64,000 nt of DNA. Origin: a bacterium (GTDB taxonomy: Bacteria; UBP15; UBA6099; JAJRTR01). Positions 16,951 through 64,000 of the stretch are shown piece after piece (within the stretch, counting starts at the first letter, position 1; each line of letters begins with the position of its first letter). Below the pieces are notes generated by a model. The model searched no databases. It was not told the DNA's origin and saw only the letters and a program-made list of their open reading frames with translations. The translations under genes were made by a program, and so were the position numbers. Location of the stretch: contig JAJRTR010000174.1 of assembly GCA_024278215.1 (NCBI GenBank), forward strand, positions 23,489-87,488. The letters are read 5' to 3'.

Positions 16951-16963
16951 GAGGTTACAGGGA

Positions 16964-17350: not shown

Positions 17351-17453
17351 ACATTAGCGAACTCGCAAAGAGCTTTTTTGTGCATTTCCGCCAACTTTGA
17401 AAACAACGGCTGCATTGGGAATGACTAATTATACGTGAATCAATAATTCGGGG

Positions 17454-20394: not shown

Positions 20395-20412
20395 CTTGTC
20401 CTCGCTTCCTAT

Positions 20413-20596
20413 AGAGAGCCAATTGCAAAATTTCGATTCGGCTGCGGTCGGCTGCAATTGTCCATAGCCGCGTTGTCGGCACAAAATCATCCTCAACGTA
20501 CTCGGCGAGTTCGCCTGCGGGGGATTTTGCACCTCCGCCTTGCTTCTGAAAAATTTCGTTCGGCCTCGCTACGAACATAATTTTGCAATTGGCTCT
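20413..20596 (-). repeat. MITE-like repeat family 1, full copy in inverted orientation
   Basis: The reverse complement aligns end to end with 14868-15047 and 45760-45940, including both terminal inverted repeats. Confidence 0.7.
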
Positions 20597-37000: not shown

Positions 37001-40000
37001 GGTAGTTCGTTCACTTCAAGTTCATTGTCTTCACACCAGGAGCGGACACGGGCGCTATCTCCCGCCGACTTCGATGCCGACGGCGACTTCGACTTGCTCG
37101 AAGGCAACTACGGCGCGCCCAACAGGGTATTCAGAAACGACGGCTCGGGCAATTTCTCCGAACTGTGGGCCTCTTCCGGCAGTGAATATACCTCTGCTGT
37201 CGCATGGGCCGACACAGACGGCGACGGCGACCTCGACGCTTTCTTCGGCAACAGTTACGTGGGTGCACTGAACTATATTAATGTTAATGACGGCGCGGGT
37301 TCGTTCTCCGCCTCATGGACATCGCGCGACGCCGACGAAACTTATGACGCCGCGTTCGGCGACACAGACGGCGACGGGGACCTCGACCTGATTACCGCCA
37401 ACAGCGATTCTGATTCCACCCGCGATAATTACAGGCTCATCCGCGTTTACTCGAATTCCGGCGGCAACTTGTTCGCGGCATCGGCAAACATGGGAGCCGG
37501 CGATTATGCCGTTGCTGTCGCGCTCGGCGACTATGACGGCGACGGCGACCTCGATATCCTCGAAGGTTCGAGCGACGGCGGCGACGACATGCCTGTTCGT
37601 GTGTATATGAATAACATGGACCCGTCGAATGCCGCTCCATCCGCGCCGTCTGTTATCAAAACAGACAACCAGGTTCTCTCAGCCGCTACTTCTCCGATCT
37701 CCATAGCGTGGTCCGCACCGTCCGACGACATCACAGTCACCGCGCTCCTGTCATATCAGTTACGTATCGGCACATGCCCCGGCTGCAGCGATGTTATGTC
37801 GGGCGCTTTCGCGCCTCCCGGCGGCAATATCGGCGCGACGACTGCTGTCAATATCAACATGTCCGATTCTGGCACGTACTACTGGTCGGTCGCGGCGGTG
37901 GACAACACAGGCTTCGCGACAGGCGCATGGTCGGACGAGGAATTTTTCGCCGTTTCACTTCCCCTGTTCGATACAGGTTGGACGAGTCCCGAAGGTGGAA
38001 CATGCAGGGATGCCGCGGCAGGTGACTTCGACGGCGACGGCGACCTCGATATTGCATCGAGCTTCGACGCGCAGAATATGGTTTATGAGAATAACGGCAG
38101 TGGCTCTTTCAGCGACGCATGGACATCCGCCGAGTCTGAAAACACGATGGAAGTCGCATGGGGCGACTACGACAACGACGGCGACCCGGACATACTTGTC
38201 GCCTCCGCAAACGGGCCTGCGAGGATATATAAAAACACTGGCGGCACCTTCTCTACTGCATGGTCATCCATTATGAGCGTGCAGGGCGGCGGCGTCTCAT
38301 GGGCCGACCTCGACAACGATGGCGACCTCGACTTCGCCGCCTCGAGCTACGGCATAAACAATCTCGTCTACAGAAACGACGGCGGCGATTCTTTCACCCT
38401 TTCATGGCTTTCCAGCGACACAGACAACACAACTGACGTCGAATGCGCCGACTTCGACAATGACGGCGACAGCGACATTGCCGCTGCGAATGAGTCCGGA
38501 CCTGTGAAGCTTTACGCAAACGACGGCGCGGGCAGTTTCATTGCTGTCTGGACATCCTCCGACACCGGCTACACAAGTGGGATTTCGACCGGAGATTACG
38601 ACGGTGACGGCAATTTGGATATGCTCACGGTGGCTGGTTCTTCATACTACAACAGAGTGTACCGGGGCGGTGGCGGCGGCACATTCACAGCCGTGTGGAC
38701 CGCTGGAGAGGACGGTCCGTTTTCCGGCGGCGCGTGGGGCGACTACGACGCGGACGGCGACCTCGATTTCTTCGTCTCCTACAGCGGCACAGACAGTCGT
38801 GGCAGCCACGTTTATCGCAATACAGGTAGTGATTCCTTCAACCTCGTGTGGGCGTCGCTGAATGATGACGCGTCGTACAGCGCCGCCTTCGGCGATTTCG
38901 ACGGCGACGGCAATATCGATCTGCTCTCGGCGAATACCGGCGTAAGAACATGGACGAATATGTCCACCGTATCGAACAGCGCGCCCGCGCAGCCGACTGT
39001 AACAGCCGTCGGCGATCAGGAATTCCACATCTCGGCCACTCCTGCCGTAACACTGTCATGGACCGCGCCCTCCGACGACTACACACCCTCGAATTCACTC
39101 ACATACCAGGTGCGAGTCGGCACTTGTTCGGGATGTAGCGACATCGTCTCCGACACTTTCGTGCCGCCGTGGGGCAACGCCGGCCCTTCGACGTCATACA
39201 CTTTCAACGCGACCGCATCCGGCACTTATTACTGGAGTGTATCCGCCGTGGACACTTCGGGGTTCCTCGTGGGCGCGTCGAGCGCGGAGGATGTCTTCGA
39301 TGTTTCATTTTCGATGCTCGGCACAAGGACACCGTTCGATTACTCGTGGTACGGCAGCGCGTCCGACTACAGCAGCGGCAGCGCCTGGGGCGACTACGAC
39401 GCCGACGGCGACCTCGACATCCTGATTTCAGACGCCGGCGCGTCCGCCGGCAACAGGATATACTCGAACGACGGCGGCAACACCTTCACGCTCGCGTGGA
39501 CGGCGACTGAATGGAACACAACGGAAGCCGCCGCCTGGGCTGACTACGACGGTGACGGCGACCTCGACGCTGTTTTCGTTTCAGGCGGTTCGGGCGAGCC
39601 GAATTATGTTTACCGAAATGTTGGCGCGGGCGGCTTCGTAGTCGGTTGGACTTCGACGGAAACCGAGCCTTCGCAGGCCGTTGCCATCGGCGATTTCGAC
39701 GGCGATGGCGATCTTGATATCTTCGTCGGAAATAACAGCGCGTCTGTTCCTGACCGCGTTTATAAAAATGTTTCCACAGGTTTCACCACCGCCTGGACTT
39801 CGTCTTCATACTACACGACGCGCGCCGTGGATATGGCAGACTACAACCTCGACGGTCGCCCCGACTTACTGCTCGGCAACAGCGGCTCTGCCATGGAACC
39901 GATTGTCATATATTCGAACAAAGGCGGCGAGTGTTTCACCGAAGCCTGGACTTCGTCCGAGCAGGAATACACTTCCGCCGTCGAGTGGGGCGACTACGAC

Positions 40001-46141: not shown

Positions 46142-48298
46142 ATGGAGAAAAACGTGAAGCAGGTTTTAATACAGAACGGGCAGGCGGTCGTTGAAGATGT
46201 GCCGCCGCCACAACCCGAATCCGGCACAATTGTTGTCCGTGTACTGAACTCGTGTATTTCGCCCGGCACAGAAGGCAGCGGAATGAAAGAGTCGGCGGAA
46301 CCACTCTGGAAGCGTGCCCTGAAGAATCCCGGCAAAGTGAAGCAGGCGCTTCATATGCTGGCGACTTCAGGTTTTTCGCACACAAGAAGTGTCGTGCAGG
46401 GCAAACTCCAGTCCGGGTATGCTACGGGCTATTCGGCAGCTGGCAGAGTAATGGTCGTCGGCGCTGGTATAGACGACATCAAGGAGGGCGACATCGTGGC
46501 CTGCGCCGGCGCTCAATGCGCCCATCACGCCGAGATCATCAGGGTACCGCGCAACCTCGCCGTGCAGGTGCCAGACGGACTCGACGCCTCGCACGCAAGC
46601 ACCGTAGCACTCGGCGCTATAGCCATGCAGGGCGTGCGCCGCGCGAAACCGTCGCTTGGTGAAAACTTTGTCGTCATCGGGCTCGGCGTTATCGGGCAAC
46701 TTACCGCTCAATTTCTCAAAACGAACGGCTGCCGGGTTATCGGCGCAGATCTCGATCCCGAAAGATCACGCATCGCCATGGAACTCGGTATGGACATCGA
46801 ACTCAAGCCGGACGACGGTCCCGGCGTCGAGAATGTGATGCGACTGACCGGCGGCCTCGGCGCGGACGGTGTCATCATTACAGCTTCCACAAGCTCGCAT
46901 GAAGTCCTCTCCACCGCGTTTCAGATGTGCCGCCGCAAGGGCCGTGTCGTACTTGTCGGCGTTGTCGGCATGACTATGAACAGGGAAGACATTTACGCGA
47001 AGGAACTCGACTTCTTTATTTCCACCTCTTACGGCCCGGGCCGCTACGACAACAATTACGAGGAAAAAGGACACGATTATCCGCCATCTTATGTGCGCTG
47101 GACCGAAAACAGGAACATGTGGGAATATCTCCGCCTGCTTGCCGACGGTAGAATAAATATCGAGCCTCTAATATCCGCAACGCATGTTATAGACGATGCT
47201 CCCACAGCTTATGCGGCGATAGCGGACGGCGAACACAGGCCGATGATCACACTTCTTTCTTATCCCGAAAACAGCAACGCGGCCACCGGCGGCAGGTTAC
47301 TCAATCCTTCCGCTTCGCCCTCACAAAAGAGTGTTCTTAATCTCGCGCTTGCAGGAGCGGGCGGCTTCGCGCACGGGATGCACCTTCCCAATCTGAGCAG
47401 AATGAAGAACCTTTATTGTCTTCATGCCGTTATGAGCCGCACCGGTCACAACGCGAAGGCGACAGCGAAACAGTTCGGCGCAAAATATGCGACGACCGAT
47501 TACCGCGAGATCGTCTCCGACGCGGATGTCGACGCTGTTCTTATCTGCACACGGCATGACTCACACGCGAAGATGACACTCGACGCACTTCGAGCCGGAA
47601 AACACGTTATCGTCGAAAAACCGCTTGCCCTCGACCGCGATGAAATGAGTGCTGTCGAAGAGTTCTATAATAACGCCGGCGGCGAATCCGGCGCGCCGGT
47701 CCTGCTGACCGGCTTCAACAGGCGCTTTTCGAAATTCTCGAGGCGTATCGCAGAAATAATTGCAGGCAGGAAAAACCCGATAATCATCAACTACCGTATG
47801 AACGCAGGCTATATCCCACTCGACAGCTGGCTCCACAACGAACAGGGCGGCGGCCGCAATATAGGCGAAGCCTGCCATATTTACGACCTGTTCACGTTTT
47901 TCACGAACGCGAAAGCCGTTGCAGTTGACGCAAGATCAATCACCGCCGAGCCCGGTTATTACTCGAACAGGGACAATTTCATCGCCACTGTTTCCTTCGA
48001 CGATGGCTCGATTGCAACCCTCACATACACTGCGCTCGGATCGAAAGACTTCCCTAAAGAGACTATGGAAATATATTGTGACGGAAAAATACTTTCGATG
48101 TGCGATTACAAAAAACTTACTGTTTACGGCACGAACCTGAGCGGCATCGAATCATCAGCGTTCGACAAGGGGCACCGCGAAGAACTCGAAGAGTTCGCGC
48201 GCGCTGTGAAGGGCGGCGGCGCGTGGCCGATACCGTTGTGGCAGCAGCTACAGGCAATGGAAATAGCTTTCAGGGTTGAAGAAATGTTGACGCGGTGA
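46142..48298 (+). CDS. Bi-domain oxidoreductase: N-terminal zinc-type MDR dehydrogenase fused to C-terminal Gfo/Idh/MocA oxidoreductase
   Basis: MDR GroES-like plus Rossmann 'VIGLGVIGQL'. Gfo/Idh/MocA 'LALAGAGGFAHGMHLP', 'VLICTRHDSHA', 'AGKHVIVEKPLA'. Confidence 0.8.
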   Translation: MEKNVKQVLIQNGQAVVEDVPPPQPESGTIVVRVLNSCISPGTEGSGMKESAEPLWKRALKNPGKVKQALHMLATSGFSHTRSVVQGKLQSGYATGYSAAGRVMVVGAGIDDIKEGDIVACAGAQCAHHAEIIRVPRNLAVQVPDGLDASHASTVALGAIAMQGVRRAKPSLGENFVVIGLGVIGQLTAQFLKTNGCRVIGADLDPERSRIAMELGMDIELKPDDGPGVENVMRLTGGLGADGVIITASTSSHEVLSTAFQMCRRKGRVVLVGVVGMTMNREDIYAKELDFFISTSYGPGRYDNNYEEKGHDYPPSYVRWTENRNMWEYLRLLADGRINIEPLISATHVIDDAPTAYAAIADGEHRPMITLLSYPENSNAATGGRLLNPSASPSQKSVLNLALAGAGGFAHGMHLPNLSRMKNLYCLHAVMSRTGHNAKATAKQFGAKYATTDYREIVSDADVDAVLICTRHDSHAKMTLDALRAGKHVIVEKPLALDRDEMSAVEEFYNNAGGESGAPVLLTGFNRRFSKFSRRIAEIIAGRKNPIIINYRMNAGYIPLDSWLHNEQGGGRNIGEACHIYDLFTFFTNAKAVAVDARSITAEPGYYSNRDNFIATVSFDDGSIATLTYTALGSKDFPKETMEIYCDGKILSMCDYKKLTVYGTNLSGIESSAFDKGHREELEEFARAVKGGGAWPIPLWQQLQAMEIAFRVEEMLTR

Positions 48299-48369
48299 GC
48301 TGCATGTTACGTACCTTTACTCACAGTGAGTGCGAACAGACTCATATCATTTTGAATGGATAAAACAAG

Positions 48370-50268
48370 ATGTGCGGAATCACAGGAGCGCTGACTTTTA
48401 AAAACAGCGCTTTCGAAATAACGGAAGAATACATAACGGCAATGCGCGACACGATGATACATCGCGGCCCCGACGGCGCGGGCACATGGGTGTCGGGCGA
48501 CAGGTCTGTCGGGCTCGGACACAGGCGGCTCTCGATCATCGACCTATCGGAATCCGCCGCGCAGCCGATGTGCAGCCACGACGAATCCGTGCAACTTGTG
48601 TACAACGGCGAAATATATAATCACGAGGAAATACGCAGGGAACTCGATGCGATTCGTCCGCGCAAATGGAAAACCCACCACTCGGACACCGAGGTAATTA
48701 TCCACGCTTACGAAGAATGGGGTGTCGACTGCCTCGAAAAGTTTCGTGGCATGTTCGCCTTCGCCCTGTGGGACACGCGACTCGGTCGCCTGTGGCTCGT
48801 CAGGGACAGGATCGGCATCAAACCCCTCTACTACAGCATCCATCACGGCAGGATCACCTTCGCATCCGAGATAAAAGCACTGCTCGAAGACCCCGATCAG
48901 AAAAGGGTTCTCGACGAGCGCAGTTTCTTTCATTTCCTCTCTATGATCTTCTCTCCCGCGCCTGATTCGCTTTTCGAAGGGATAAATAAGATTCCCGGCG
49001 GCTGCTGGCTGATGGTGGACAGAAACGGCAAATCGGAACTCAGACGATACTGGGACGTGCTCGAAAGAACGACACCGCTGACGGATGCGAGCGAAGATGA
49101 AATCGCCGAAATGATTATCGAGACACTTCGCGAGGCCGTGCAGCTGAGAAAGGTAAGCGACGTGCCTGTCGGTGTGTTCCTTTCGGGCGGAATCGATTCG
49201 AGCACCAACACAGCCCTGTTTTCCGAAGGCGCGCGCGAGCCGGTAAAAACATTCACTATCGGCTACGACACGGATTACGGCTCATACAAAAACGAAATAC
49301 ATTACGCGAAGATGATGGCCGAATACGGAGGCGCGATTTATCACGAGAAACTTCTTAATATCGATTACCTCATTGATTTCCTGCCTCAGATGGTTCACCT
49401 CCAGGACGAACCGATTGCAGACCCCGTATGCGTCCCAGTCTATTATGTATCGAAGCTCGCGCGGGACAACGGCGTCATCGTCTGCCAGGTGGGCGAAGGC
49501 GCGGACGAACTGTTTTTCGGCTACGGCCACTGGAAACACCTTCTGCAATTGCAACAGTGGGACAACCTGCCCGTGCCGCGTTTTATGAAAAAAATGGGGC
49601 TCGCGGCCTTGCGTTCCATCGGCAAAGAGGACAATCTGCCGTTCGAGTGGCTGCGGCGCGGCTCGCTCGGACAGCCTGTCTTCTGGGGCGGCACAGACTA
49701 TTTCACCGACTACCAGAAACGGAAACTTCTATCAGATCGCCTCAATAAAAACTTTTCAGACATTACCACCTGGGATGTCATGCGTCCCCTGCGACAGCGG
49801 TTTATCGAGAAAGACTGGGAAAAATCGGACATGAACTGGATGTCTTTCATCGACCTTCACCAGCGATTGCCCGAACTGCTCCTTATGCGCGTCGATAAAA
49901 TGAGCATGGGCGTAAGCCTCGAAACTCGCGTGCCTTTTCTCGATCATAAATTCGTCGAACTCGCCTTCAGCATCCCGCAGTCTCTCAAACTGAAGAACGG
50001 CACACTGAAATATATGCTGAAAAAATCAGTCCGCGGCGTGATACCCGACGAACTGATCGACAGACCCAAACAGGGCTTCGGCGTTCCTCTTCACGAATGG
50101 TTTTTCGACAAACTCGGCGACAGGGTCAAAAATGAAATCAAATACTTTTGTGAACAGACCGACCTGCTGGACAAACAATATGTCGACTCTCTTTTCGATT
50201 CACAGAGGTTCACGGACCTGTGGTTTGTTTTCAATTTCGCGCTCTGGTGGAAAGAATTTTTGGAATGA
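48370..50268 (+). CDS. asnB: Asparagine synthase (glutamine-hydrolysing)
   Basis: 'MCGITG' Ntn nucleophile, 'HRGPDG', 'RRLSIIDL', PP-loop 'VGVFLSGGIDSS'. Confidence 0.9.
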   Translation: MCGITGALTFKNSAFEITEEYITAMRDTMIHRGPDGAGTWVSGDRSVGLGHRRLSIIDLSESAAQPMCSHDESVQLVYNGEIYNHEEIRRELDAIRPRKWKTHHSDTEVIIHAYEEWGVDCLEKFRGMFAFALWDTRLGRLWLVRDRIGIKPLYYSIHHGRITFASEIKALLEDPDQKRVLDERSFFHFLSMIFSPAPDSLFEGINKIPGGCWLMVDRNGKSELRRYWDVLERTTPLTDASEDEIAEMIIETLREAVQLRKVSDVPVGVFLSGGIDSSTNTALFSEGAREPVKTFTIGYDTDYGSYKNEIHYAKMMAEYGGAIYHEKLLNIDYLIDFLPQMVHLQDEPIADPVCVPVYYVSKLARDNGVIVCQVGEGADELFFGYGHWKHLLQLQQWDNLPVPRFMKKMGLAALRSIGKEDNLPFEWLRRGSLGQPVFWGGTDYFTDYQKRKLLSDRLNKNFSDITTWDVMRPLRQRFIEKDWEKSDMNWMSFIDLHQRLPELLLMRVDKMSMGVSLETRVPFLDHKFVELAFSIPQSLKLKNGTLKYMLKKSVRGVIPDELIDRPKQGFGVPLHEWFFDKLGDRVKNEIKYFCEQTDLLDKQYVDSLFDSQRFTDLWFVFNFALWWKEFLE

Positions 50269-50322
50269 CGACGGGCTCCACGCACCTTTCGCACATTGTC
50301 CGGCCTGTTCCAGTTGGAATGA

Positions 50323-51945
50323 TTGACTTTGAATAGAAAAAAACAGTTCATCCTCGACCTCGATGATGTCGGAGACCGCGCCGCAGCCCCTGCCGGTTCC
50401 ACATACTACGATATTTATTCGCTCAGAGAAATACTAAGCCCCCGCGAACTCCTGAAACATATATTCAGATACTCTGAATCGACTGTCCTTGTCTACATCA
50501 ACGATTCCTTCCGTCGCCCTCTGTTCGTTTCCGTTCTGCTGCGTCTCATGAGCAGGGGCAGGTGTTTTTCTCTCGATTGCAACGGCCATAGAAAGAACAT
50601 TACATTTTTCAACATCATTGGCTTTGCTTCAAAGTTCGCTATTGATTATTTGCGCAGTAAAAAAGTTGTCCGCAATGCAGAAAACGATGAGCGGGAGATA
50701 AAATATAAATATGCTAGCATTGCCAATAAGCAATTACGTATAGACATGTCCGCGTCACCCGTTTATATGAGAACCGACCTTAAACTCGGACTCACCGCGG
50801 GCGGTTCCGTAGGCCACATCGCCGGTGTGTTGAACAATCTCGACTGTTTCTGCGCAACACCCATATTCATTACTTCGGATAATATACCCACAGTTCGAGA
50901 CGACATCGAAAAGCATATTGTAGATGCCGGGCCGGATTTCCGCGACTTCACCGAAGTGCAGTTCCTTCACTATTCAGCAATATTCTTCAATCGTTCACTC
51001 GAAATATTGAGCGGCGCAAAACCATCATTTATATACCAGAGATACAGTCTCGGCAATATGTCGGGAATAATGCTTGCGCGGCATTTCGGGGTTCCGCTCG
51101 CACTCGAATTCAACGGCTCGGAAGTATGGGTGAGCCGTAACTGGGGCAAGCCGGTGAAATATGGAGACCTGCTCGAAAGGATCGAGTCGACCGTCAACCT
51201 TGCTGCCGATGTCGTTGTTGTTGTCAGCAGGCCGCTGAAGGAACAACTTGTCGCGGCGGGCGTCGAGGCTGGGAAGATACTTGTCAATCCCAACGGAGTC
51301 GATCCTGCGAAGTATTCACCCGGCATCGACGGCTCGAAAATAAGGAATAAATACAGGCTCGAAGGAAAAACCGTTATTGGATTTATCGGTACTTTCGGGA
51401 TGTGGCACGGCGCGGAGGTTCTCGCGGAAGCATTCGGAAAACTTCTAGCGAAACGACCCGAACTGCGTCATAAAACAAGTCTCCTTATGATAGGCGACGG
51501 CGTGATGATGAAGCAGGTTCGCGAAAACCTGAATAAATATGATGTGATGAAATATGCAACGCTAACCGGCATTGTGCCGCAGAGCGAAGGACCTGAACAC
51601 CTTGCCGCCGCAGACATCCTTGCGTCGCCTCATGTGCCTAACCCGGACGGATCGCCTTTCTTCGGTTCGCCGACAAAGCTTTTCGAGTATATGGCGATGG
51701 GCAAAGGGATAGTCGCTTCCGATCTGGCGCAAATCGGCGAGATACTCGACGACAACCACACCGCTGTACTTGTCGAGCCGGGCAACTCCGACGATTTCAT
51801 GCACGGACTTGAAGTTTTACTCGACGATAAAAACAAGAGAGAATCGCTCGGCCATGAAGCTCGCAGGGTAGTTGTCGAAAAATATACATGGAAAGAACAC
51901 ACTCGCAGGATAATCGAAAAACTGAAGGAAAGATGCGGTGCGTGA
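50323..51945 (+). CDS. Glycosyltransferase (GT4-like C-terminal domain) with an uncharacterised N-terminal half
   Basis: 'GKILVNPNGVD', 'FIGTFGMWHG', 'ASDLAQIGEILDD'. TTG start in the track. Confidence 0.7.
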   Translation: MTLNRKKQFILDLDDVGDRAAAPAGSTYYDIYSLREILSPRELLKHIFRYSESTVLVYINDSFRRPLFVSVLLRLMSRGRCFSLDCNGHRKNITFFNIIGFASKFAIDYLRSKKVVRNAENDEREIKYKYASIANKQLRIDMSASPVYMRTDLKLGLTAGGSVGHIAGVLNNLDCFCATPIFITSDNIPTVRDDIEKHIVDAGPDFRDFTEVQFLHYSAIFFNRSLEILSGAKPSFIYQRYSLGNMSGIMLARHFGVPLALEFNGSEVWVSRNWGKPVKYGDLLERIESTVNLAADVVVVVSRPLKEQLVAAGVEAGKILVNPNGVDPAKYSPGIDGSKIRNKYRLEGKTVIGFIGTFGMWHGAEVLAEAFGKLLAKRPELRHKTSLLMIGDGVMMKQVRENLNKYDVMKYATLTGIVPQSEGPEHLAAADILASPHVPNPDGSPFFGSPTKLFEYMAMGKGIVASDLAQIGEILDDNHTAVLVEPGNSDDFMHGLEVLLDDKNKRESLGHEARRVVVEKYTWKEHTRRIIEKLKERCGA

Positions 51946-51968
51946 CTGCCGCGTGATAATTTTCTGCT

Positions 51969-54296
51969 ATGGGAATCACATCTTATGTGAAAAAAGCGTT
52001 TTCGATGCCGCCCGGCATGTTGTTCAGGAAGGCGGCGGCACGTGTGCTTCCCGGCTGGAACCAATTCAAAAGGAAACGTCATGATCTAAGGCATACTACA
52101 TATATATGCGAAACTCCATTTAAGAATAATTCGTTTGATCTTAACCTGCCGGACATAACAATATCCGCCGAACAATTGGTGCCGCATTCGGAATGGATCG
52201 CGGGAACAACGGAAAATTATCTGGCCCATCGTTTCGACCTTCTCGGCTCGGGCTGGACGTGCGTCGCGCACGGGATACGCTGCCGGGGCTTCGAGGGCTC
52301 ACGCTATGACAGCGGCTGCGCGGTCGACACCAAAACAGGCGACAGCCGCTTCCGCGACAGAATCAACAAATCCAATTCGGCTGAATCTCATAGAATATGG
52401 TCGCTTATCGGCAATGATTACGATCACATAGATTGGCATATCGATTTCAAGTCCGGCCGGCGCTGGAGCGAAGCCGCCTGGTACCGGAATATCTGGTACG
52501 GGCACAAGCGAGGCGTCGATGTGAAAGTGCCCTGGGAACTCGCCCGCATGCAGCACCTGCCGCATCTCGCTTATGCTTTCATTCTCGCCGCCGGCGGCAC
52601 AGACGGATTTGATGAACCGGCGCGGTACGTGCATGAGTTCCGCAATCAGGTTCTTGATTTCGTTGCCGGCAATCCGCCCCGCTTCGGCGTCAACTGGACA
52701 TGCACAATGGACGTTGCGATACGTGTCTCTAACTGGATCATGGCACGCGCTTTATTCGAATCCGGCGGAGCGGACTTCGACAGCGATTTCATTTCCGTTT
52801 TCAACAGGAGCGTCTATGAGCACGGTGTTCACATAATCAACAATCTCGAATGGAACCCCGAACTGCGCGGGAATCATTATCTGTCGGACATCGCCGGGCT
52901 GATATTCGTTTCAGCAGCTCTGCCGTGTGTGCCGGAGACAAACGCATGGCTCGCGTTCGGAGTGCAGGAACTGATCTCGGAAACAGAGAAACAATTTTTC
53001 AGGGATGGCGGCAATTTCGAATGCTCGACCGCCTACCACAGGCTGTCCGCAGAACTCGTCGCGTATTCCGCGGCTGTGATTCTTGGACTGCCGCCTGAAA
53101 AAATCGACGCGCTCTGCGAATACGACAATAAATTGCACAAAACCTTACCCCCGCTGAAACCCGCGCCGATTAAACTGTATGACATTCCGGGCCTGAACAT
53201 GACCAGCCCCCTGCCCCGCCGGTTCCTCGACAGAATGCACCGTATGGCGACATTCAGCATCGACATTACCAAACCGTGCGGCCACATTCCACAGTTCGGA
53301 GACAACGACAGCGGCAGGTTTTTCAAGTTTAACCCGATATACAATAAAATGGCGGTTTCAGATGCTCGCGGCCTGTACGGCAATCTCTGTGATTACAAAG
53401 AGCTCGACGATGATGCCGTTTATTGGGACGAAAACCATATCGATCACCGCAGTACAGTTTCAGCGATAAACGGTTTTTTCCTCGACCGCCGTTTTTCTGC
53501 CTTTACAGGCAGCAACATACTGGATGAAATCGTAATCAGAGAGCTTGCGGGTTTTTCACCTGGACAGTCACTTCCGAGAGCGGACATTTGCAATCGTCAT
53601 ATCATCGCGACTTCGGAACATACGCCGGAAACATGTAACAACATACTGGAATCATTGCCCGACAACAAAAAAAACACGATAGAGATTGAGTTGCCCGGCG
53701 TTTCGAGCGCGGGAGAAATCGTTCTGACGCAGTACCCTGAATTCGGACTGTATATCTTCAGGAATGAGGTGATGTTTCTCGCCGTCCGATGCGGCCCCAT
53801 CGGACAGAACGGGTTCGGCGGCCACGCCCATAACGACCAGCTTGCCATCGAGTTACAGCTTGCCGGAAAGGACATTATTGTCGATCCGGGCACATACATT
53901 TATACGCCGGTCCCCGAGATAAGAAATAAGTACAGGTCGGTGCGCGCACATTTCGCCCCCAGGCCCGTCAATGCAAAAGAACCCGGCAGGTTGGACCTCG
54001 GACTGTTCCGGCTCGGCGATGAAGCGAAAGCCGAATGTCTCTACGCAGACGACCACACATTCGCAGGCAGGCACTTCGGCTTCGGCAGCCCTGTCTATCG
54101 CATGATAAAAATCACACAGGAAAAACTGATAATCACCGACTGGATCGAATCGGATGACGACACGGAGGCAATCGAGTTGCTTACAGTAGACAAACACGCC
54201 TCGGCAGTGAATGAATTGGGTTTTTCACCTGCCTATGGCGTTAAATATACGAAAACAAATGCCTCTTCGCTATTTGGTGTGGATAGAGAAATGTAG
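51969..54296 (+). CDS. Heparinase II/III-like family protein
   Basis: 'WNPELRGNHYLSDIAGLIFVSAALP', 'GGHAHNDQLAIELQLAG'. Typical neighbour of AsnB and the bi-domain oxidoreductase in polysaccharide loci. Confidence 0.65.
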   Translation: MGITSYVKKAFSMPPGMLFRKAAARVLPGWNQFKRKRHDLRHTTYICETPFKNNSFDLNLPDITISAEQLVPHSEWIAGTTENYLAHRFDLLGSGWTCVAHGIRCRGFEGSRYDSGCAVDTKTGDSRFRDRINKSNSAESHRIWSLIGNDYDHIDWHIDFKSGRRWSEAAWYRNIWYGHKRGVDVKVPWELARMQHLPHLAYAFILAAGGTDGFDEPARYVHEFRNQVLDFVAGNPPRFGVNWTCTMDVAIRVSNWIMARALFESGGADFDSDFISVFNRSVYEHGVHIINNLEWNPELRGNHYLSDIAGLIFVSAALPCVPETNAWLAFGVQELISETEKQFFRDGGNFECSTAYHRLSAELVAYSAAVILGLPPEKIDALCEYDNKLHKTLPPLKPAPIKLYDIPGLNMTSPLPRRFLDRMHRMATFSIDITKPCGHIPQFGDNDSGRFFKFNPIYNKMAVSDARGLYGNLCDYKELDDDAVYWDENHIDHRSTVSAINGFFLDRRFSAFTGSNILDEIVIRELAGFSPGQSLPRADICNRHIIATSEHTPETCNNILESLPDNKKNTIEIELPGVSSAGEIVLTQYPEFGLYIFRNEVMFLAVRCGPIGQNGFGGHAHNDQLAIELQLAGKDIIVDPGTYIYTPVPEIRNKYRSVRAHFAPRPVNAKEPGRLDLGLFRLGDEAKAECLYADDHTFAGRHFGFGSPVYRMIKITQEKLIITDWIESDDDTEAIELLTVDKHASAVNELGFSPAYGVKYTKTNASSLFGVDREM

Positions 54297-57787: not shown

Positions 57788-60760
57788 ATGAATACAATTT
57801 TTCCCGCTAATGTGTCTGCGCACTTACTGCTGCAGGCCATGGCAGCTAATTACAATCTCAGGTATCGATACAGGAAGTATCTCAAGAGCACAAACGGCTG
57901 GATCGACTTCTCGGTGGGTTTCAGAACACGCGACGACACCATCGTTCAGACTATTAGCTTCAAAGACGGTCGTGCCCGTGTGACAGGCCGAATCATAAAA
58001 AATGTGGATGCGGTGATAGTGTTCGAGGACGATTCCGCTTTCATGAATATGCTCAGCAATTCTTCCGAAGAAGTATTGACTATGATGCTTAAAAACCGTA
58101 TCCGCATAAAAGGCAATCATTTATGTGTGCTGCTGTTCTATTTTCTTATGTCCCTTCTTATGAATGAGTTCAAGGGCAAGGGGACGGGTAAGGAGACGGC
58201 CCGCAACGGCAACACGCCGCCTCGCAAAAAAAGTGCATTGCCGAAGCACGTACCGGAGCGCCCCAGTATTCGACGCAAGGCTACCCTCACTATCGAGCGC
58301 ACCGGTGAGGGGGTTAAGTATCTCGACGATCCATACCTGTCACAATACTGCCTTGAAGACTTTCCGCGCCTGGGGCGTTTCCTTTCCATTCACTTCGACA
58401 CGATGCCCGAGGTTTGCCCGGAGCGTGCAAAGTTGATCACGGACTGGTATCTGAAAAACGGGTTCGAGAAGAAGCGCAACGGGCAACCGTGGATTCCCGA
58501 GACGCGCCAGGCTTACGCGTTCAAGCACCTGATGGAAAACAAGAAACCCATCATTCGCGAAGATGACCTTATCGCCGGAACCACCACGACTATGCCGATA
58601 GGGGCGGTAATGTATCCCGATTCGCAGGGTATGTTTATATGGCCCGAACTGTACACTATGTCCAGCCGTGAGATGAACCCGTGCCGCGTTTCACGCAGAA
58701 CGGCAAAGGTCCTGCACCACCATGTGTTTCCGTTCTGGATGCGGCGCAACATCAAGCTGTGGGTAGGCGAAAAATACAATAACCCGCTGTGCGAACAAAT
58801 CGGTGACCACCTTGTGGTGTACATACTGTCAAAAAGTGTGGCCCTGTCGCACACGATTGCGGATTTCCCAACACTTCTGGCACTCGGCACCAGCGGCATC
58901 CGCCGTAAAATCAGCGAGGAATTGCTGCGCGATACGGCGGCGGACAAGCAAAAACGATATACCCTGGAAGCAATGTCTATATGTCTCGACGGACTGGAAT
59001 CGTATACAAGAAACCTCGCCGGGCACGCGCGTAAACTTGCGCGCAAGGCCGTAAGCACGCAACGACGCGGGGAACTCGAGCGCCTCGCTGAAATCTGCGA
59101 CAAAGTTGCTGTTGATCCGCCCGATACCCTTGACGAGGCGATAAATCTCATCTGGATCGCCTGGGTGGCTCTGCACATGGAAAACACCAACGTGGGGCTG
59201 TCGCTGGGTCGTATGGACCAGTGGCTGCAACCGTTCTTCGAGTCCGATATAGAAAAGTGCACAACACAGGAACAACGCGAGAAATATATCAAGCACGCCA
59301 TACGGCTTGTGTGCTGCTTCTTCCTGAGATGTACGGATCATATACCTATGTCGCCGGATGTGGGCAAACATGTGGTGGGCGGTGCGCCTGCCAACCAGGC
59401 CGTTACTCTGGGCGGTGTCACGCCGGACGGCAAGGATGCCGTCAACGACATGACCTATATTTTTCTTAAGGCAACCGAGATGCTCGGCATCCGCGACCCC
59501 AACGTGAACGCGCGATACAGCCCGGAGAAGAATTCCGACACGTATCTCAAGCGCCTGTGCGAAGTGAATCTGATCACCACCGCTTCACCGTCCATGCACA
59601 ATGACAGCGCGGTGATAACATCGCTTGAAGAGTTCGACTATCCTATTGAAGATGTACGCGACTGGTCGTCCACAGGCTGTGTCGAGCCCACGCTTTCGGG
59701 CAAACACATCGGGCACACCGGCTGCATGATGATGAACATGGTTGCCGCGCTGGAGATGGCACTCAACGACGGCACCCACCCGCTGATGAAGTGGGACCTC
59801 GGCCCGAAAACAGGGAGTATCGACAACGGCGCTTTCCCCACTTTCGAGGACTTCTTCGAAGCGTTTAAAATACAGTTCGAGTTCCTGATTGCAAACGCCG
59901 TGCAGTACAACAACTACCTTGGCGAATCGCACAGCGTGATGCGCCCTACTCCGCTGCTTTCGGCCATGATCCGCGACTGCATCCGCAACGGAAAAGACCT
60001 GACCAAAGGCGGCGCACGCTATAATTCATCAGGCATAGCCTGCATCGGACTGATCGACGTTACGGACTCGCTTATCGCTATAAAAAAATTCGTTTACGAC
60101 GACAAACTCATTACGTTCGCGGAACTCAAGGACGCAGTTGATTCCAATTTCAAAAAACACAGTATGCTGTACGCCATGATCCAGAATAAATCCGTCCGGT
60201 TCGGATCGGGCAACGCCGAGGCGCTCGAAATGGCCAACAGGATAACGAAAGTCACGCACGACGCGTTCGCGTCGCACAGGAACTTCCGGGGAGGTATCTA
60301 CACTACCGGGTTCTGGTCGATGTCCAACCATGTGGCGTTCGGAATGCTCACAGGGGCGCTTCCTTCGGGGCGCCTTGCTGGTGCTCCCTTCACACCCGGC
60401 CTCACGCCGCAGTCGCACGCTTCCAACAACCTGCTCGACAATATCAAGGACGTTGCCGGGCTGGACCCGCACAACATGAACAACAACATCGCCTTTAATA
60501 TAAAGGTATTTCCCGCTGCCGGAGAAAGCCATGAGAAATCTGTGGACGATATATATTCTTACGTGAAGACATACTTCGATCTGGGCGGTATGCAGATACA
60601 GCTCAACGTGATCAACACCGAGACGCTGCGCGATGCGATGGCCCGCCCTGAGAATTACCAGAACCTGCTTGTGCGCATTTCGGGGTATAACGCTTACTTC
60701 ACTACACTTACAAAGGAGCTTCAGCTCGAACTCATCCATCGGGCCGAGTTCGGCATCTGA
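57788..60760 (+). CDS. Glycyl radical enzyme, 1,2-eliminase/lyase class (GCVEP Cys loop), with N-terminal SCP2-like extension
   Basis: C-terminal glycine-radical motif 'VRISGYNAYFTTL'. Cys loop 'SSTGCVEPTLSG' (TGT at 59668-59670). PFL-like fold signatures throughout. The first ~130 aa resemble an SCP2 lipid-binding fold. Confidence 0.85.
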   Translation: MNTIFPANVSAHLLLQAMAANYNLRYRYRKYLKSTNGWIDFSVGFRTRDDTIVQTISFKDGRARVTGRIIKNVDAVIVFEDDSAFMNMLSNSSEEVLTMMLKNRIRIKGNHLCVLLFYFLMSLLMNEFKGKGTGKETARNGNTPPRKKSALPKHVPERPSIRRKATLTIERTGEGVKYLDDPYLSQYCLEDFPRLGRFLSIHFDTMPEVCPERAKLITDWYLKNGFEKKRNGQPWIPETRQAYAFKHLMENKKPIIREDDLIAGTTTTMPIGAVMYPDSQGMFIWPELYTMSSREMNPCRVSRRTAKVLHHHVFPFWMRRNIKLWVGEKYNNPLCEQIGDHLVVYILSKSVALSHTIADFPTLLALGTSGIRRKISEELLRDTAADKQKRYTLEAMSICLDGLESYTRNLAGHARKLARKAVSTQRRGELERLAEICDKVAVDPPDTLDEAINLIWIAWVALHMENTNVGLSLGRMDQWLQPFFESDIEKCTTQEQREKYIKHAIRLVCCFFLRCTDHIPMSPDVGKHVVGGAPANQAVTLGGVTPDGKDAVNDMTYIFLKATEMLGIRDPNVNARYSPEKNSDTYLKRLCEVNLITTASPSMHNDSAVITSLEEFDYPIEDVRDWSSTGCVEPTLSGKHIGHTGCMMMNMVAALEMALNDGTHPLMKWDLGPKTGSIDNGAFPTFEDFFEAFKIQFEFLIANAVQYNNYLGESHSVMRPTPLLSAMIRDCIRNGKDLTKGGARYNSSGIACIGLIDVTDSLIAIKKFVYDDKLITFAELKDAVDSNFKKHSMLYAMIQNKSVRFGSGNAEALEMANRITKVTHDAFASHRNFRGGIYTTGFWSMSNHVAFGMLTGALPSGRLAGAPFTPGLTPQSHASNNLLDNIKDVAGLDPHNMNNNIAFNIKVFPAAGESHEKSVDDIYSYVKTYFDLGGMQIQLNVINTETLRDAMARPENYQNLLVRISGYNAYFTTLTKELQLELIHRAEFGI

Positions 60761-60762
60761 CT

Positions 60763-61665
60763 ATGGCCGGCGATCCGCTTATATTCGAGATAAAGAGAAA
60801 TTCACTTGACGACGGACCCGGCATCCGCACGGTAATATTCTTCAAGGGCTGCCCGCTGTCCTGCTCATGGTGCCAGAACCCGGAGGGCCGCTGTCCGCGT
60901 GTCGAGATTTCCTTTGATCGGAAAAAGTGCATTGATTGTAAGACCTGCCTTAACATCTGCAAAAACAGCGCGCTGGACCGCCATCCGCTTTATTTCATCG
61001 AACGCGAGAAGTGTGACCTGTGCTTCGAATGCGCGGACAACTGCCCGACCGAAGCGCTGGCACGTGTGGGCAGGCATATTTCGGTACAAGAAATCATGGA
61101 CGCCGTTGTTCGCGACATTCCGTTCTTCAACACTTCGGGCGGTGGCGTCACTCTGTCCGGCGGCGAGGCAACTCTATACATGCCGTTCGCCTCGAAACTC
61201 CTCCAGGCTCTCAAGCAGCAGGACATCAGCACACTGCTCGAAACCTGCGGCCATTTCGATTTCCAGGCCTTCGACGAGCTTATCTACCCATGGCTGGACC
61301 AGATTTATTACGATTTGAAGTTTTTCGATTCCGGCTTCCACCGGAAATACTGCGGGGTCCCAAACGATCAGATTCTCGAAAACTTCGAGAAGCTCTACGC
61401 TCGCTCGCTTGACGGCGGCGTGCCGATTCTGCCGCGCATTCCGCTCGTTCCGAGACTGACTGCCGTGAAGACGAATCTACGGGCTCTGGCCGCTTTCCTC
61501 CGCAAGAACAAGGCTCGGCAGGTTTCCCTGCTCGAATACAATCCACTGTGGCAGGATAAAATGATTACCGTTGGAATGACCAGTGATTACGACAAGACCG
61601 ACTGGATGACAAAAAAGGAAGTGAAAGTATGCCGGTCTTTCTTTAAAAAATTCGACATCATATAA
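60763..61665 (+). CDS. Glycyl-radical-enzyme activating enzyme (radical SAM) with two extra ferredoxin-type clusters
   Basis: Radical-SAM 'GCPLSCSWCQNP' (CX3CX2C). Ferredoxin motifs 'CIDCKTCLNICK' and 'CDLCFECADNCP'. SAM-binding 'LSGGEAT'. Starts 3 nt after the glycyl radical enzyme. Confidence 0.9.
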   Translation: MAGDPLIFEIKRNSLDDGPGIRTVIFFKGCPLSCSWCQNPEGRCPRVEISFDRKKCIDCKTCLNICKNSALDRHPLYFIEREKCDLCFECADNCPTEALARVGRHISVQEIMDAVVRDIPFFNTSGGGVTLSGGEATLYMPFASKLLQALKQQDISTLLETCGHFDFQAFDELIYPWLDQIYYDLKFFDSGFHRKYCGVPNDQILENFEKLYARSLDGGVPILPRIPLVPRLTAVKTNLRALAAFLRKNKARQVSLLEYNPLWQDKMITVGMTSDYDKTDWMTKKEVKVCRSFFKKFDII

Positions 61666-61753: not shown

Positions 61754-64000
61754 ATGCAGAACAGAAAGTGGAACTACGAGGAATATTGCAGGCCGGATTT
61801 TGTGAAGATGCTTCGGGCGCTGAGGCTCGATGTGCATTTCACGAGAGCCGCCGGCGATTACCTTTATTATACCGACGATAACGGGCAGGAGATTGCTATA
61901 CTCGACCTTGCGGGCGGCATGGGCTCAACGATACTTGGACACAACAATCCGGCAGTAAACAAAACACTTGCCCGCTGCCTCGAGTCCGGTGTGCCGATGC
62001 ACGCCCAGGGCACGGTACGCGAGTCTGCCGGCAGGCTGGCCGCCCGCCTCAACCAATTATATCCCGGCGCACAGAAACGCATTTGTATCTTTACCAACAC
62101 TGGCACCGAAGCTGTCGAAACCGCACTCAAACACGCCGAGATGAATCGCATGAAACGCCTGCTTGCAATCGGTAAGGACCTCAAAGCGCACCACAAAAAG
62201 ATGCGGGAGTACTTCCGCGACAATACAGGCTACACCCTGCCGGAAAAATATCGCGACAGGGGCTTCGACTCGCTGCTTAACGACATTCTCATGCAGGGGC
62301 TGCTGCTCGAGCAACTCCCGCCGGTCGTTATATCCACAAAAGGCGCGTTCCACGGCAAGACCACCTCGGCGCTGAGCGTGACAGGCAACAAGATGTACCG
62401 CGAGCCTTTCGCCCGTATGAGCGGCATCCGGACAAAGTTCATCGATTTCAACGATGCCGCTCAACTCGAATCAACTCTGGAAAATAATTATTTCGAAATA
62501 AACAAGATCGTTGTCGAAGACGGCATTGTCAGGCTTGTCCCCGATAAGCATCTGAATATTACGGCATTCATCACGGAACCGATTCAGGGCGAGGGCGGTA
62601 TACATGTCGCCACACAGGAATTTATCGGGCAGATCGCCGCTCTTCGCGACAGACACGGGTTCGAATGGATCGTGGACGAAATACAGTCGGGCATGGGCCG
62701 CACTGGTTCTTTCTTCGCTATGGAACGATACGGAATCGACCCGGACACGGTGGACTATGTGCTGCTTTCCAAGTCGCTCGGCGGAGCCGTATCCAAACTC
62801 AGCGTCGCTATGATCCGCGAGCCGATACACGACGGCAATTTCGGGATGCTTCACACGTCTACCTTCGGCGAGGACGCTTTATCATGCGAAGTGGCCCTGA
62901 CTGTTCTGGATGAACTTACCGGTAATGATAAAGCGCTGATACGCAACTGCTCCGACATGGGCGACTACCTGATGGCCGGACTGCGCGAACTGAAGGAAAA
63001 ACACCCGGGCGTTGTGTCGGGTGTGCGCGGAGCGGGTCTCATGGCTGGTGTCGAGTTCAATGTGCGACGCAACGGCAAGTCGATCTTCTTCGCCGAACTC
63101 GCGGCCCAGGGCGGACTGGGAATGCTCATTGCCGGATACCTGTTCCACGAGCACCGCATACGCACTCAACCACCCCTCAACTCCATCATCACTAAAAAAC
63201 CTTCGAACATACTCCGCATCGAGCCTTCCGCACTTATCGACAAAAAAGACATCGACCGTGTGCTCTTCGCCCTCGACCGCGCATGTGAGATCGTCGAAAA
63301 ATCAAATGCTTACGAACTTACAAAATTCGTGATCGACAAGGAAACACCCGGCGAATATGTAGATATTAAGGACTTCTTCGAACCTGTGGAACCGTCCGCG
63401 GAGCAGGCGGACTTCGAGAACGTGCGCCAGATGGGTTTCCAGTTCCACCCGCTGGACGTACACCAGGTGATGGAAGGCTTCGACAAATCGCTGTGCGAGT
63501 TCAGCCGCGAGCCGGACCCCGCAACCGGGCAATCGGAGCGCGACCTGTACTGGGACCGCCTCGTGCCCATTCTGGGCGCATTCGTGCTCAAGGTAATCAA
63601 TCTGAAGTCGCCCCGCACCGGCGACAGAGTGCGTGCCACACTGTTCGGACTGCCCTACACAACACGTCAGATGCTGGACCTGCATAAAAACAATCCCCAA
63701 TTCCTCATCGACCGCATCCAGGAAGGTGCCGAACGCGCCGCCGCTATGGGCGCGCGCATATTCGGGCTCGGGGCTTTCAACTCCATCGTCACTCACGACG
63801 GCATGGACCTCGACGACACCAACATCCGCATCACCAGCGGCAACTCATACACCGCCGCACTGATATGGCAAAGTGTCCTCAAGGTTGCCGATTACGCCGA
63901 ACTCGATCTGGAAAAATCAACCGCTGCAATCGTCGGCGCCGGCGGCAACATCGGCAGCGTCACAGCCAGTCTTCTGTCCGAAGACATCTCGCACTTTATC
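61754..64000 (+). CDS. Fusion protein: class-III (PLP) aminotransferase plus acyl-ACP-reductase-like NAD(P) domain. 3' end outside window.
   Basis: Uninterrupted frame from ATG 61754 (SD AGGAAAGAGGA) to the window edge; it is absent from the ORF track because it has no stop. Aminotransferase motifs 'KGAFHGKTTSALSVTG', 'EPIQGEGG', 'DEIQSGMGRTGSFFA', 'LSKSLGG'. C-terminal 'GLGAFNSIV', 'TSGNSYTAALIWQSV', 'AAIVGAGGNIGSVTASLL' parallel cyanobacterial acyl-ACP reductase. Confidence 0.7.
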   Translation, partial: MQNRKWNYEEYCRPDFVKMLRALRLDVHFTRAAGDYLYYTDDNGQEIAILDLAGGMGSTILGHNNPAVNKTLARCLESGVPMHAQGTVRESAGRLAARLNQLYPGAQKRICIFTNTGTEAVETALKHAEMNRMKRLLAIGKDLKAHHKKMREYFRDNTGYTLPEKYRDRGFDSLLNDILMQGLLLEQLPPVVISTKGAFHGKTTSALSVTGNKMYREPFARMSGIRTKFIDFNDAAQLESTLENNYFEINKIVVEDGIVRLVPDKHLNITAFITEPIQGEGGIHVATQEFIGQIAALRDRHGFEWIVDEIQSGMGRTGSFFAMERYGIDPDTVDYVLLSKSLGGAVSKLSVAMIREPIHDGNFGMLHTSTFGEDALSCEVALTVLDELTGNDKALIRNCSDMGDYLMAGLRELKEKHPGVVSGVRGAGLMAGVEFNVRRNGKSIFFAELAAQGGLGMLIAGYLFHEHRIRTQPPLNSIITKKPSNILRIEPSALIDKKDIDRVLFALDRACEIVEKSNAYELTKFVIDKETPGEYVDIKDFFEPVEPSAEQADFENVRQMGFQFHPLDVHQVMEGFDKSLCEFSREPDPATGQSERDLYWDRLVPILGAFVLKVINLKSPRTGDRVRATLFGLPYTTRQMLDLHKNNPQFLIDRIQEGAERAAAMGARIFGLGAFNSIVTHDGMDLDDTNIRITSGNSYTAALIWQSVLKVADYAELDLEKSTAAIVGAGGNIGSVTASLLSEDISHFI

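Follow-up and report, generated by a model that had tools for sequence, protein, structure and literature searches.

What is encoded by the reading frame that runs off the 3' end of this stretch of DNA, and what is the meaning of its position directly behind a gene for a glycyl radical enzyme (GRE)? The window, by which we mean the whole 64,000-nucleotide stretch analyzed here, contains 749 stop-free codons at positions 61754-64000 of the plus strand, in a frame that is still open at the window end. A preliminary description had drawn attention to an unlisted ORF of at least 749 codons and had attributed its absence from the ORF list to its running off the window end; translation gave no stop anywhere, and we arrived at the same cause. 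The nearest in-frame stop on the 5' side is at 61622, and the ATG at 61754 is preceded, at a distance of about 9 nucleotides, by a GAGGA ribosome-binding site. The full-length version is available as a 100% identical database protein of 1020 amino acids (P0001). Frame continuity between the two domains, which the preliminary description had wanted checked, is borne out by P0001 and by more than 20 homologues from independent assemblies (52-84% identity), all with the same uninterrupted ORF of about 1012-1022 amino acids. Judging from these sequences, a frameshift or assembly artefact is not the source of the fusion. The N-terminal features are as follows.

61754..64000, plus strand: 5' part of the transaminase-thioester reductase (TA-TR) fusion gene, 749 of 1020 codons (73%), no in-frame stop, 100% identity to P0001 residues 1-749
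61832..63178, plus strand: class-III omega-transaminase domain, residues 27-475 (Pfam Aminotran_3, E = 2.8e-68)
62675..62677, plus strand: codon for D308 in the DEIQSG motif; D308-E309-I310-Q311 invariant in alignments of 22 and 11 sequences
62771..62773, plus strand: codon for K340, the PLP Schiff-base lysine in LLSKSLGG, invariant in the same two alignments

The assignment of the N-terminal 450 or so residues to the class-III aminotransferases, and of the PLP lysine to LSKSLGG, had been made from the sequence at the outset and holds in both parts: the Aminotran_3 match extends over residues 27-475, and the lysine is K340. D308 is presumably the pyridine-N-binding Asp of class-III transaminases. 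The remainder of the chain consists of a linker, partly helical in the predicted structure model, and a domain that resembles acyl-ACP reductase (AAR).

63179..63421, plus strand: interdomain linker, residues ~476-556, bounded by the Pfam TA match and by the onset of the alignment with AAR and the reductase domain of PigE (PigE-TR)
63422..64000, plus strand: AAR-like thioester-reductase domain, N-terminal part, residues 557-749 of 557-1020
63935..63955, plus strand: nucleotide-binding motif G728-A-G-G731-N-I-G734, aligned with GATGDIG of AAR

Is this second domain a reductase? The likeness to AAR first rested on three pairs of segments (GLGAFNSIV/ALGGFTSII, TSGNSYTAALIWQSV/TTGNTHTAYVICRQV and AAIVGAGGNIGSVTAS/VAVVGATGDIGSAVCR), and all three recur in the HMMER alignment with S. 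elongatus AAR (6jzz/6jzq), which the in-window fragment matches at E of about 1e-4. The preliminary description had named a sub-threshold AAR score together with a match to an ordinary dehydrogenase family as its refutation, and here the outcome is split. The cyanobacterial AAR equivalog TIGR04058 gives 47.6 bits for the full domain and 33 bits for the in-window part, so far below its cut-off of 449.7 that the domain cannot count as an AAR orthologue, yet none of the ordinary dehydrogenase families takes it in. The AAR fold is present, and the catalytic Cys951 (a residue taken from full-length P0001 and encoded about 600 bp past the window end) stands at the position equivalent to AAR C294, within a stretch, residues 929-947, where model confidence is low (pLDDT <50). 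In the nucleotide-binding motif, G728, A729, G731, N732 and I733 are invariant in both the 22- and the 11-sequence alignments, and G734 in the 22-sequence clade alignment. By a wide margin, the top matches of the domain are the PigE reductase domain (E = 5.7e-66 for the reductase profile, chain residues 2-354, with catalytic motif GCVAET versus GCMAET) and AAR (E = 9.8e-50). The subfamily is divergent, with only about 33% identity in the reductase domain to its nearest other relatives.

These scores also decide against two other identities. A non-reductase, whether related to the TAD (the AAR-like terminal amidation domain found in NRPS/PKS lines) or engaged in other NAD-dependent chemistry, is very improbable: the reductase profile matches the TAD structure 9e4x at only E = 9e-15, the PigE-TR and AAR matches are 35-50 orders of magnitude stronger, the domain shares its polypeptide with a transaminase, as the TamH reductase does, and does not follow a megasynthase carrier protein, and the activity of the TAD is itself unproven. 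We rejected it on the scores, as we did a fused HemA-HemL pair (glutamyl-tRNA reductase and glutamate-1-semialdehyde aminomutase) for tetrapyrrole synthesis. GluTR is a distant AAR relative that passes an aldehyde to a class-III-fold PLP enzyme, and the profile does match GluTR 1gpj (E = 2.4e-9); yet NCBIfam hemA reaches just 12.8 bits (E = 0.041, cut-off 209.55), hemL is missing among the top TA matches, and GSAM structures rank far under CrmG, YgjG and PigE, leaving the HemA-HemL identity with a negligible chance.

The preliminary description had taken the fusion architecture to be undescribed. It is in fact known in both orders, as TA-TR in TamH (PMC9594044) and as TR-TA in the bifunctional PigE of the Serratia prodigiosin MAP pathway (PMC8341465), and because such two-domain enzymes have already been shown to make fatty amines from fatty acyl-thioesters in antibiotic pathways, the fusion is not new. 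The proposed route from acyl-thioester through aldehyde to primary amine fared better, having an experimental counterpart in PtTamH (A4C5V8) from the tambjamine YP1 pathway of Pseudoalteromonas tunicata, for which conversion of C12-acyl-ACP to aldehyde and then amine was demonstrated (ACS Catal 2022; PMC9594044). PtTamH has its TA domain ahead of its TR domain, with PLP lysine K340, a GxxGxxG motif and Cys887, and rejects acyl-CoA as a substrate (PMC9594044). The fusion shows the same succession of N-terminal class-III omega-transaminase, linker and C-terminal AAR-like thioester reductase on one chain, the PLP lysine likewise at residue 340, a reductase domain that has both the nucleotide motif and the catalytic Cys, and a length within the TamH-type range of about 900-1040 amino acids, a probable kinship that draws on shared PigE, AAR and CrmG matches and the published description. 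The architecture recurs in at least 120 database clusters, with all 120 of the best listed clusters spanning both halves, and 64 of the 150 top reductase-domain matches are proteins of 801-1060 amino acids with the reductase at the C-terminus.

There are differences as well. PtTamH has 941 amino acids against 1020 in the fusion, whose clade carries about 8 extra residues in the N-terminal lobe of the reductase, about 36 more as helices around residues 790-841, and a C-terminal tail of about 20. Unlike PtTamH, the fusion has no bipyrrole (pigment) gene cluster around it and no TamA-like adenylation-ACP partner: neither a TamA-like ANL-ACP nor a carrier protein was found in the 64-kb window or in related loci. 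It comes from an uncultivated anaerobe that carries dsrAB-like genes, and its gene adjoins that of a glycyl radical enzyme. PigE (PDB 4ppm; NF053554), also bifunctional, is the best database match for both halves, with 289.6 bits in four stretches of the in-window fragment (E = 5.5e-86; equivalog cut-off 850), but differs in domain order and pathway context. AAR (TIGR04058; PDB 6jzq) is a stand-alone protein of about 340 amino acids and the partner of aldehyde-deformylating oxygenase; the domain of the fusion is a superfamily relative.

These comparisons establish what the two domains are, that their catalytic residues are conserved, in which order they stand and that the fusion is intact. By analogy with TamH and PigE, from which we infer its chemistry, the ORF is probably a TamH-type bifunctional enzyme that would take a thioester through an aldehyde to a primary amine. 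Cys951 of the AAR-like domain would be loaded with the acyl group of a phosphopantetheine thioester, either acyl-ACP or acyl-CoA, NAD(P)H would reduce this group to the aldehyde, and this reactive product would be handed over to the PLP-dependent omega-transaminase domain (K340) of the same polypeptide and aminated. Such an enzyme would extend the known family of fatty acid to fatty amine biocatalysts into uncultivated anaerobes, and a divergent subfamily with no dedicated carrier protein could interest those seeking enzymes that take free acyl-CoA or bulk acyl-ACP.

What, then, of the genes immediately upstream? These encode a GRE and its activase.

57788..60760, plus strand: 990-amino-acid GRE of the eliminase/dehydratase type (Pfam PFL-like, E = 9.7e-161; Gly_radical, E = 1.4e-23)
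57788..58177, plus strand: SCP2-fold (lipid-binding) N-terminal domain of the GRE, residues ~1-130 (model pLDDT 87; Foldseek)
59678-59686, plus strand: Cys631-x-Glu633 loop of the GRE, GCVEP
60683-60685, plus strand: glycyl site of the GRE, RISG966Y
60763..61665, plus strand: GRE activase (radical SAM), 300 amino acids (TIGR02494, 277.5 bits versus cut-off 174.35; CxxxCxxC at residue 30)

With its PFL-like core, RISGY, GCVEP loop and dedicated activase, the GRE resembles the glycyl-radical 1,2-eliminases and dehydratases (glycerol/propanediol dehydratases, CutC, HypD; PFL2), and the Cys-x-Glu loop is that of the aldehyde-forming eliminases. Among PDB structures, A. fulgidus PFL2 matches it best (2f3o, E = 1.5e-115), and it scores under the cut-off of every named NCBIfam equivalog. 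Unlike GDH, it has the substrate-binding residues H281, S282 and D447 replaced in an alignment judged by eye, and unlike the eliminases and dehydratases at large it bears an N-terminal SCP2 domain followed by a basic linker of about 60 amino acids. All of the top 44 Foldseek matches of the SCP2-domain model have the SCP2 fold (best 3bn8, E = 2.6e-6). Pfam SCP2 (PF02036) matches 8 of 16 GRE family members (best E = 9.2e-5), the window copy reaching 14.8 bits (E = 0.037) against a gathering threshold of 21.3, and the domain is kept across the whole family, which is widespread in Chloroflexota, Actinomycetota and Desulfobacterota with 57-60% identity across phyla. The SCP2-bearing GRE beside the fusion is the new element of this locus: our literature search found no paper describing an SCP2 domain on a glycyl radical enzyme, and nothing relevant on linkage between GREs and AAR-like enzymes.

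The GRE and activase genes are separated by 2 bp and the activase and fusion genes by 88 bp, with no terminator-like site ahead of the fusion gene, and the fusion appears to be co-transcribed with the upstream GRE genes. Around the operon, scans for Rfam families, tRNAs, promoters and terminators gave nothing informative. The fusion gene lies directly 3' of the GRE, usually with the activase, within one uncultivated anaerobic lineage, where five distinct genomic contexts, all with different flanks, have only the block GRE-(activase)-TA-TR in common; downstream neighbours were studied in eight relatives (L001-L004 and L010-L013). This adjacency is limited to one clade of at least 76% identity and could be lineage-specific chance. 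A linkage beyond the close clade was rejected, as no GRE occurs within 10 kb of six TA-TR loci of 52-55% identity whose upstream sequence is complete, and GRE loci of four other lineages have no TA-TR.

Those same distributions bear on whether the fusion works by itself, as a fatty-amine (amino-lipid precursor) synthase on bulk acyl-ACP with the GRE and activase as incidental neighbours. The missing GRE at the six loci fits such a synthase, as does the absence of TA-TR beside most GRE relatives. The 52-55% relatives have variable contexts, some of them with an adjoining gene of N-acyltransferase type whose product could take up an amine (Lnt-like in L018-L020 and L022, LuxI-family in L026). 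Set against this are the three-gene block, intact in five contexts amid rearranged surroundings, and the tight spacing with no intervening terminator-like site, and we regard a stand-alone synthase as possible while leaning against it.

Alternatively, the two enzymes may meet at a common metabolite. We tentatively propose that in this lineage the fusion and the upstream SCP2-glycyl-radical eliminase share an aldehyde intermediate, and the context suggests that the substrate of the fusion may be hydrophobic. In favour of such a link are the shared block with its short, terminator-free gaps, and the Cys-x-Glu loop and SCP2 domain of the GRE. In other lineages, too, SCP2-GRE genes adjoin genes that handle aldehydes or lipids: those for an SDR and a phospholipase A1 in L027, and those in L007/L008 named below. 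Somewhat more doubtful is that GRE, activase and TA-TR form a functional cassette of an anaerobic lipid pathway not yet described. The substrate of the SCP2-tethered GRE would then be hydrophobic and carry a hydroxyl and a leaving group in vicinal positions, candidates being long-chain 1,2-diols, alkylglycerol ether lipids and sphingoid-type amino alcohols. A long-chain aldehyde would be released, which the fusion would route to an alkylamine and/or, with the reductase run in reverse, to acyl-CoA. Were this cassette real, the SCP2-GRE family would make up a functional class of its own, new among glycyl radical enzymes. The main value of the locus is as a functional clue for the SCP2-GRE, since a partner that acts on aldehydes, amines and thioesters reduces the candidate reactions to eliminations that form hydrophobic aldehydes, with a bearing on the oxygen-free breakdown of lipids such as diols, ether lipids and amino alcohols in sediments and aquifers.

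Reduction and transamination are each reversible in principle, the reversibility of AAR chemistry being assumed from general thermodynamics, and the whole fusion might run catabolically. A hydrophobic or fatty primary amine would be converted to an aldehyde by the TA domain, and the AAR-like domain would use NAD(P)+ and CoA to oxidise this aldehyde to acyl-CoA, taking the place of the non-homologous CoA-acylating aldehyde dehydrogenases usually found with glycyl-radical eliminases; the SCP2-GRE aldehyde would join at the same node. The dsrAB-like and 2-hydroxyacyl-CoA dehydratase genes also present in the window point to a strictly anaerobic host, which would suit this direction, as would the eliminase-type GRE in the operon and the lack of a carrier protein, adenylase or pigment cluster nearby. 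In other lineages, SCP2-GREs lie near aldehyde-oxidising or -reducing enzymes that feed beta-oxidation, as in L007/L008, where the neighbours are aldehyde:ferredoxin oxidoreductase, acyl-CoA synthetase and acyl-CoA dehydrogenase. But both characterised relatives, TamH and PigE, work reductively toward the amine, and nothing in the sequence indicates a direction; we consider catabolic operation rather unlikely.

Three further candidate associations were set aside. An apparent GRE/TA-TR link through P0046 and P0171 involves two different contigs that by coincidence are both 18,676 bp long. A neighbour of the Exo_endo_phos family recurs in L001, L005 and L007, probably by chance, as the proteins do not cluster together. 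The stand-alone aminotransferase near the GRE in L028 lends the link little weight because it is a generic class-III enzyme with 25% identity to the TA domain of the fusion.

The reading frame at 61754-64000 (+), absent from the ORF listing because it leaves the window before any stop, translates into 749 stop-free codons, as the preliminary description had said. The closest in-frame stop 5' of it lies at 61622, and a GAGGA ribosome-binding site precedes the ATG at 61754. P0001, a protein in the databases, matches it at 100% identity across 749/749 residues and goes on to 1020 amino acids; the NCBI contig encoding it is 108,291 bp long. More than 20 homologues from independent assemblies (1012-1022 amino acids, 52-84% identity) carry the same unbroken architecture; the fusion is thus neither a frameshift nor an assembly artefact, and the claimed continuity of the frame between its two domains holds. 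Two further genes lie upstream on the same strand:

57788-60760, + strand: glycyl radical enzyme (GRE), 990 amino acids
60763-61665, + strand: GRE activase, between the GRE and fusion genes
61754-64000, + strand: fusion gene, open at the window end
within the window: nucleotide motif G728-A-G-G-N-I-G734 of the fusion's reductase domain
about 600 bp past the window end: C951 of the same domain

The N-terminal part was correctly recognized as a class-III aminotransferase (residues 27-475, Pfam E = 2.8e-68). Its top NCBIfam matches, the transaminase part of PigE, putrescine aminotransferase and acetylornithine aminotransferases, jointly form the omega-transaminase group, and both K340 (LSKSLGG) and D308-E-I-Q are invariant in family alignments. 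A thioester reductase resembling acyl-ACP reductase (AAR) starts at about residue 557 (VRQMGFQFHPLD). The in-window fragment bears out this earlier assignment, matching the PigE model over its N-terminal portion (E = 1.4e-17), TIGR04058 AAR (E = 3.7e-8), PDB 4ppm (E = 2.1e-7) and Synechococcus elongatus AAR (E = 1.1e-4), and all three motif pairs originally cited fall within alignments to PigE or AAR. Combined into one profile, this domain, distant relatives with the same transaminase-reductase order (TA-TR) and stand-alone homologues align end-to-end with the PigE reductase domain (residues 2-354, E = 5.7e-66) and with AAR (residues 2-338 of 347, E = 9.8e-50), placing the family-invariant C951 on the catalytic FAC294FAE of AAR. 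Two outcomes had been named as speaking against an AAR-like domain, a score below the AAR threshold and a match to an ordinary dehydrogenase family. The first was found: 47.6 bits against a curated equivalog cut-off of 449.7 mark a superfamily relative rather than an AAR orthologue. The second was not, FolD-type matches reaching only about E = 1e-4 and being confined to the Rossmann fold. Scores also disfavor reading the reductase as similar to a terminal amidation domain, or the fusion as HemA/HemL.

The suggestion that such a fusion might not have been described before does not stand. PtTamH of the tambjamine pathway, with 941 amino acids, has the same domain order: about 50 amino acids of linker separate an omega-transaminase at the N-terminus (PLP lysine K340) from an AAR-like reductase at the C-terminus (GxxGxxG, Cys887; PMC9594044). 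Together with the acyl-carrier enzyme TamA, and with NADH and glutamate as cosubstrates, it turns C12 acid into C12 amine by way of C12-ACP and the C12 aldehyde, and it refuses C12-CoA (PMC9594044). PigE of the prodigiosin pathway, with demonstrated bifunctionality, has the two domains reversed (PMC8341465). Fusions of this kind are also common: both halves are covered in all 120 of the best homologue clusters listed. Used as sole query in an exhaustive search, the reductase domain retrieved 2,122 clusters (50% identity level, E up to 1e-3); the best 150 of these comprise 64 of TA-TR size with the domain C-terminal, 41 of stand-alone AAR size, 13 of megasynthase size, 30 intermediate or partial, and two fragments. 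Six proteins of 1,400-3,000 amino acids (P0252, P0253, P0272, P0274, P0361 and P0374) end in an AAR-like domain, probably the putative NRPS/PKS terminal amidation domain (PDB 9e4s) recently described (bioRxiv 10.1101/2024.10.28.620694).

The fusion is a new, divergent addition to a known kind of enzyme. Its clade (52-100% identity, about 1015-1020 amino acids) collapses to one 50% cluster, and the nearest relatives outside share about 33% identity in the reductase domain. Unlike other TA-TR proteins, PigE and AAR, the clade has an insertion of about eight amino acids in the reductase N-terminal lobe (window ~63500-63560) and about 36 amino acids of additional helix in the Rossmann lobe (P0001 residues ~790-841, past the window end); relative to other TA-TR proteins it also has a C-terminal tail of about 20 amino acids. 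Neither the window nor related loci showed a pigment cluster nearby, and a carrier protein and an adenylation enzyme were likewise absent.

By analogy with TamH and PigE, the fusion is probably a TamH-type bifunctional enzyme that would interconvert acyl-thioester, aldehyde and primary amine. The reductase would pass between acyl-thioester and aldehyde through an acyl-Cys951 intermediate using NAD(P)H, and the transaminase between aldehyde and primary amine using PLP on K340. The anaerobic, GRE-linked setting argues for the reverse direction, in which the reductase domain would work as a CoA-acylating aldehyde dehydrogenase. Both characterized relatives, TamH and PigE, argue for amine formation, and we consider the reverse the less likely of the two. 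Amine- or acyl-transfer genes adjoin TA-TR relatives of unrelated lineages: in L018-L020 and L022 the gene 5' of TA-TR encodes a homologue of apolipoprotein N-acyltransferase, Lnt-like in its LNT_N + CN_hydrolase domains, and in L026 the neighbor is a LuxI-family (Autoind_synth) protein of 403 amino acids (691-1902). The amine product may be N-acylated to lipid.

The chief interest lies in the neighboring GRE and its possible coupling to the fusion gene. Gaps of 2 bp (GRE to activase) and 88 bp (activase to fusion) separate the three genes, with no terminator-like site between them. In the GRE the glycyl site reads RISG966Y, and a GC631VE633P loop is of the kind typical of 1,2-eliminases/dehydratases; the enzyme scores under every named equivalog cut-off, its nearest match being Archaeoglobus fulgidus PFL2. 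The first ~130 residues (57788-58177) of the window copy have no significant Pfam match, and Pfam SCP2 matches eight of 16 family members (best E = 9.2e-5). With a structural model of this domain (pLDDT 87), all 44 of the top 44 Foldseek matches were SCP2-fold lipid-binding domains, including SCP2, UbiJ-SCP2, the alkyl-binding domain of alkylsulfatase SdsA1 and MFE-2 SCP2-L. As modeled, the domain is SCP2-fold, and lipid-binding by family; a basic linker of about 60 amino acids joins it to the rest of the enzyme. This SCP2-GRE architecture (about 986-1005 amino acids) recurs in L005-L009, L027 and L028, with 57-60% identity across Chloroflexi, Actinomycetota and Desulfobacterota, and our literature search found no published description of it.

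GRE, activase where present, and TA-TR form the sole block common to five distinct contexts (the window; L001; L002/L004/L013; L003/L012; L010/L011), all remaining flanking genes differing, which argues for coupling. However, all five fall within one clade at >=76% identity, no GRE occurs within 10 kb in six of six TA-TR loci at 52-55% identity with full upstream sequence, and the SCP2-GRE loci examined in other phyla lack TA-TR. In L002, L004 and L013 the TA-TR gene directly follows the GRE, and the activase must be encoded elsewhere. In other phyla SCP2-GRE repeatedly adjoins aldehyde- or lipid-handling genes:

L027: TetR-activase-GRE-SDR and phospholipase A1
L007/L008: aldehyde:ferredoxin oxidoreductase, acyl-CoA synthetase, acyl-CoA dehydrogenase
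L006: MMPL transporter
L028, 4986-7225, just 5' of SCP2-GRE: stand-alone class-III aminotransferase (omega-transaminase), DUF6206 protein, acyl-CoA dehydrogenase

The L028 aminotransferase shares 25% identity with the transaminase domain of the fusion. One tentative reading, which we rate as clearly less likely than not, is that the GRE might release a hydrophobic aldehyde removed by a differing enzyme in each lineage, here the TA-TR fusion. In L009 (Chloroflexi; 14007-17579), SCP2-GRE and its activase are followed by a second, shorter GRE (838 amino acids, 27% identity), a separate activase for it, and a PNPOx-like protein.

Just 5' of the cassette, surface-polysaccharide-type genes (46142-54296: a fused Zn-ADH/GFO-IDH-MocA oxidoreductase, asparagine synthase, GT4 glycosyltransferase and heparinase II/III-like protein) do not appear related to it. 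The host is an anaerobic bacterium, and MAGs of close relatives come from a deep mine and groundwater. Besides genes for 2-hydroxyacyl-CoA dehydratase, the window carries two adjoining NIR_SIR/ferredoxin-half-domain genes (dsrA/dsrB-like), followed by one for a CobB/CobQ-type, DsrN-like amidase (10213-13974); this dsr-like group suggests a sulfite- or sulfate-reducing organism. A homologue of the 2-hydroxyglutaryl-CoA dehydratase D-component (HGD-D, 18075-19292) is overlapped by an adjacent 418-amino-acid ORF on the same strand (19276-20532), and a 3,835-amino-acid protein (31064-42571) is built almost wholly from FG-GAP repeats, with 44 stretches matched.
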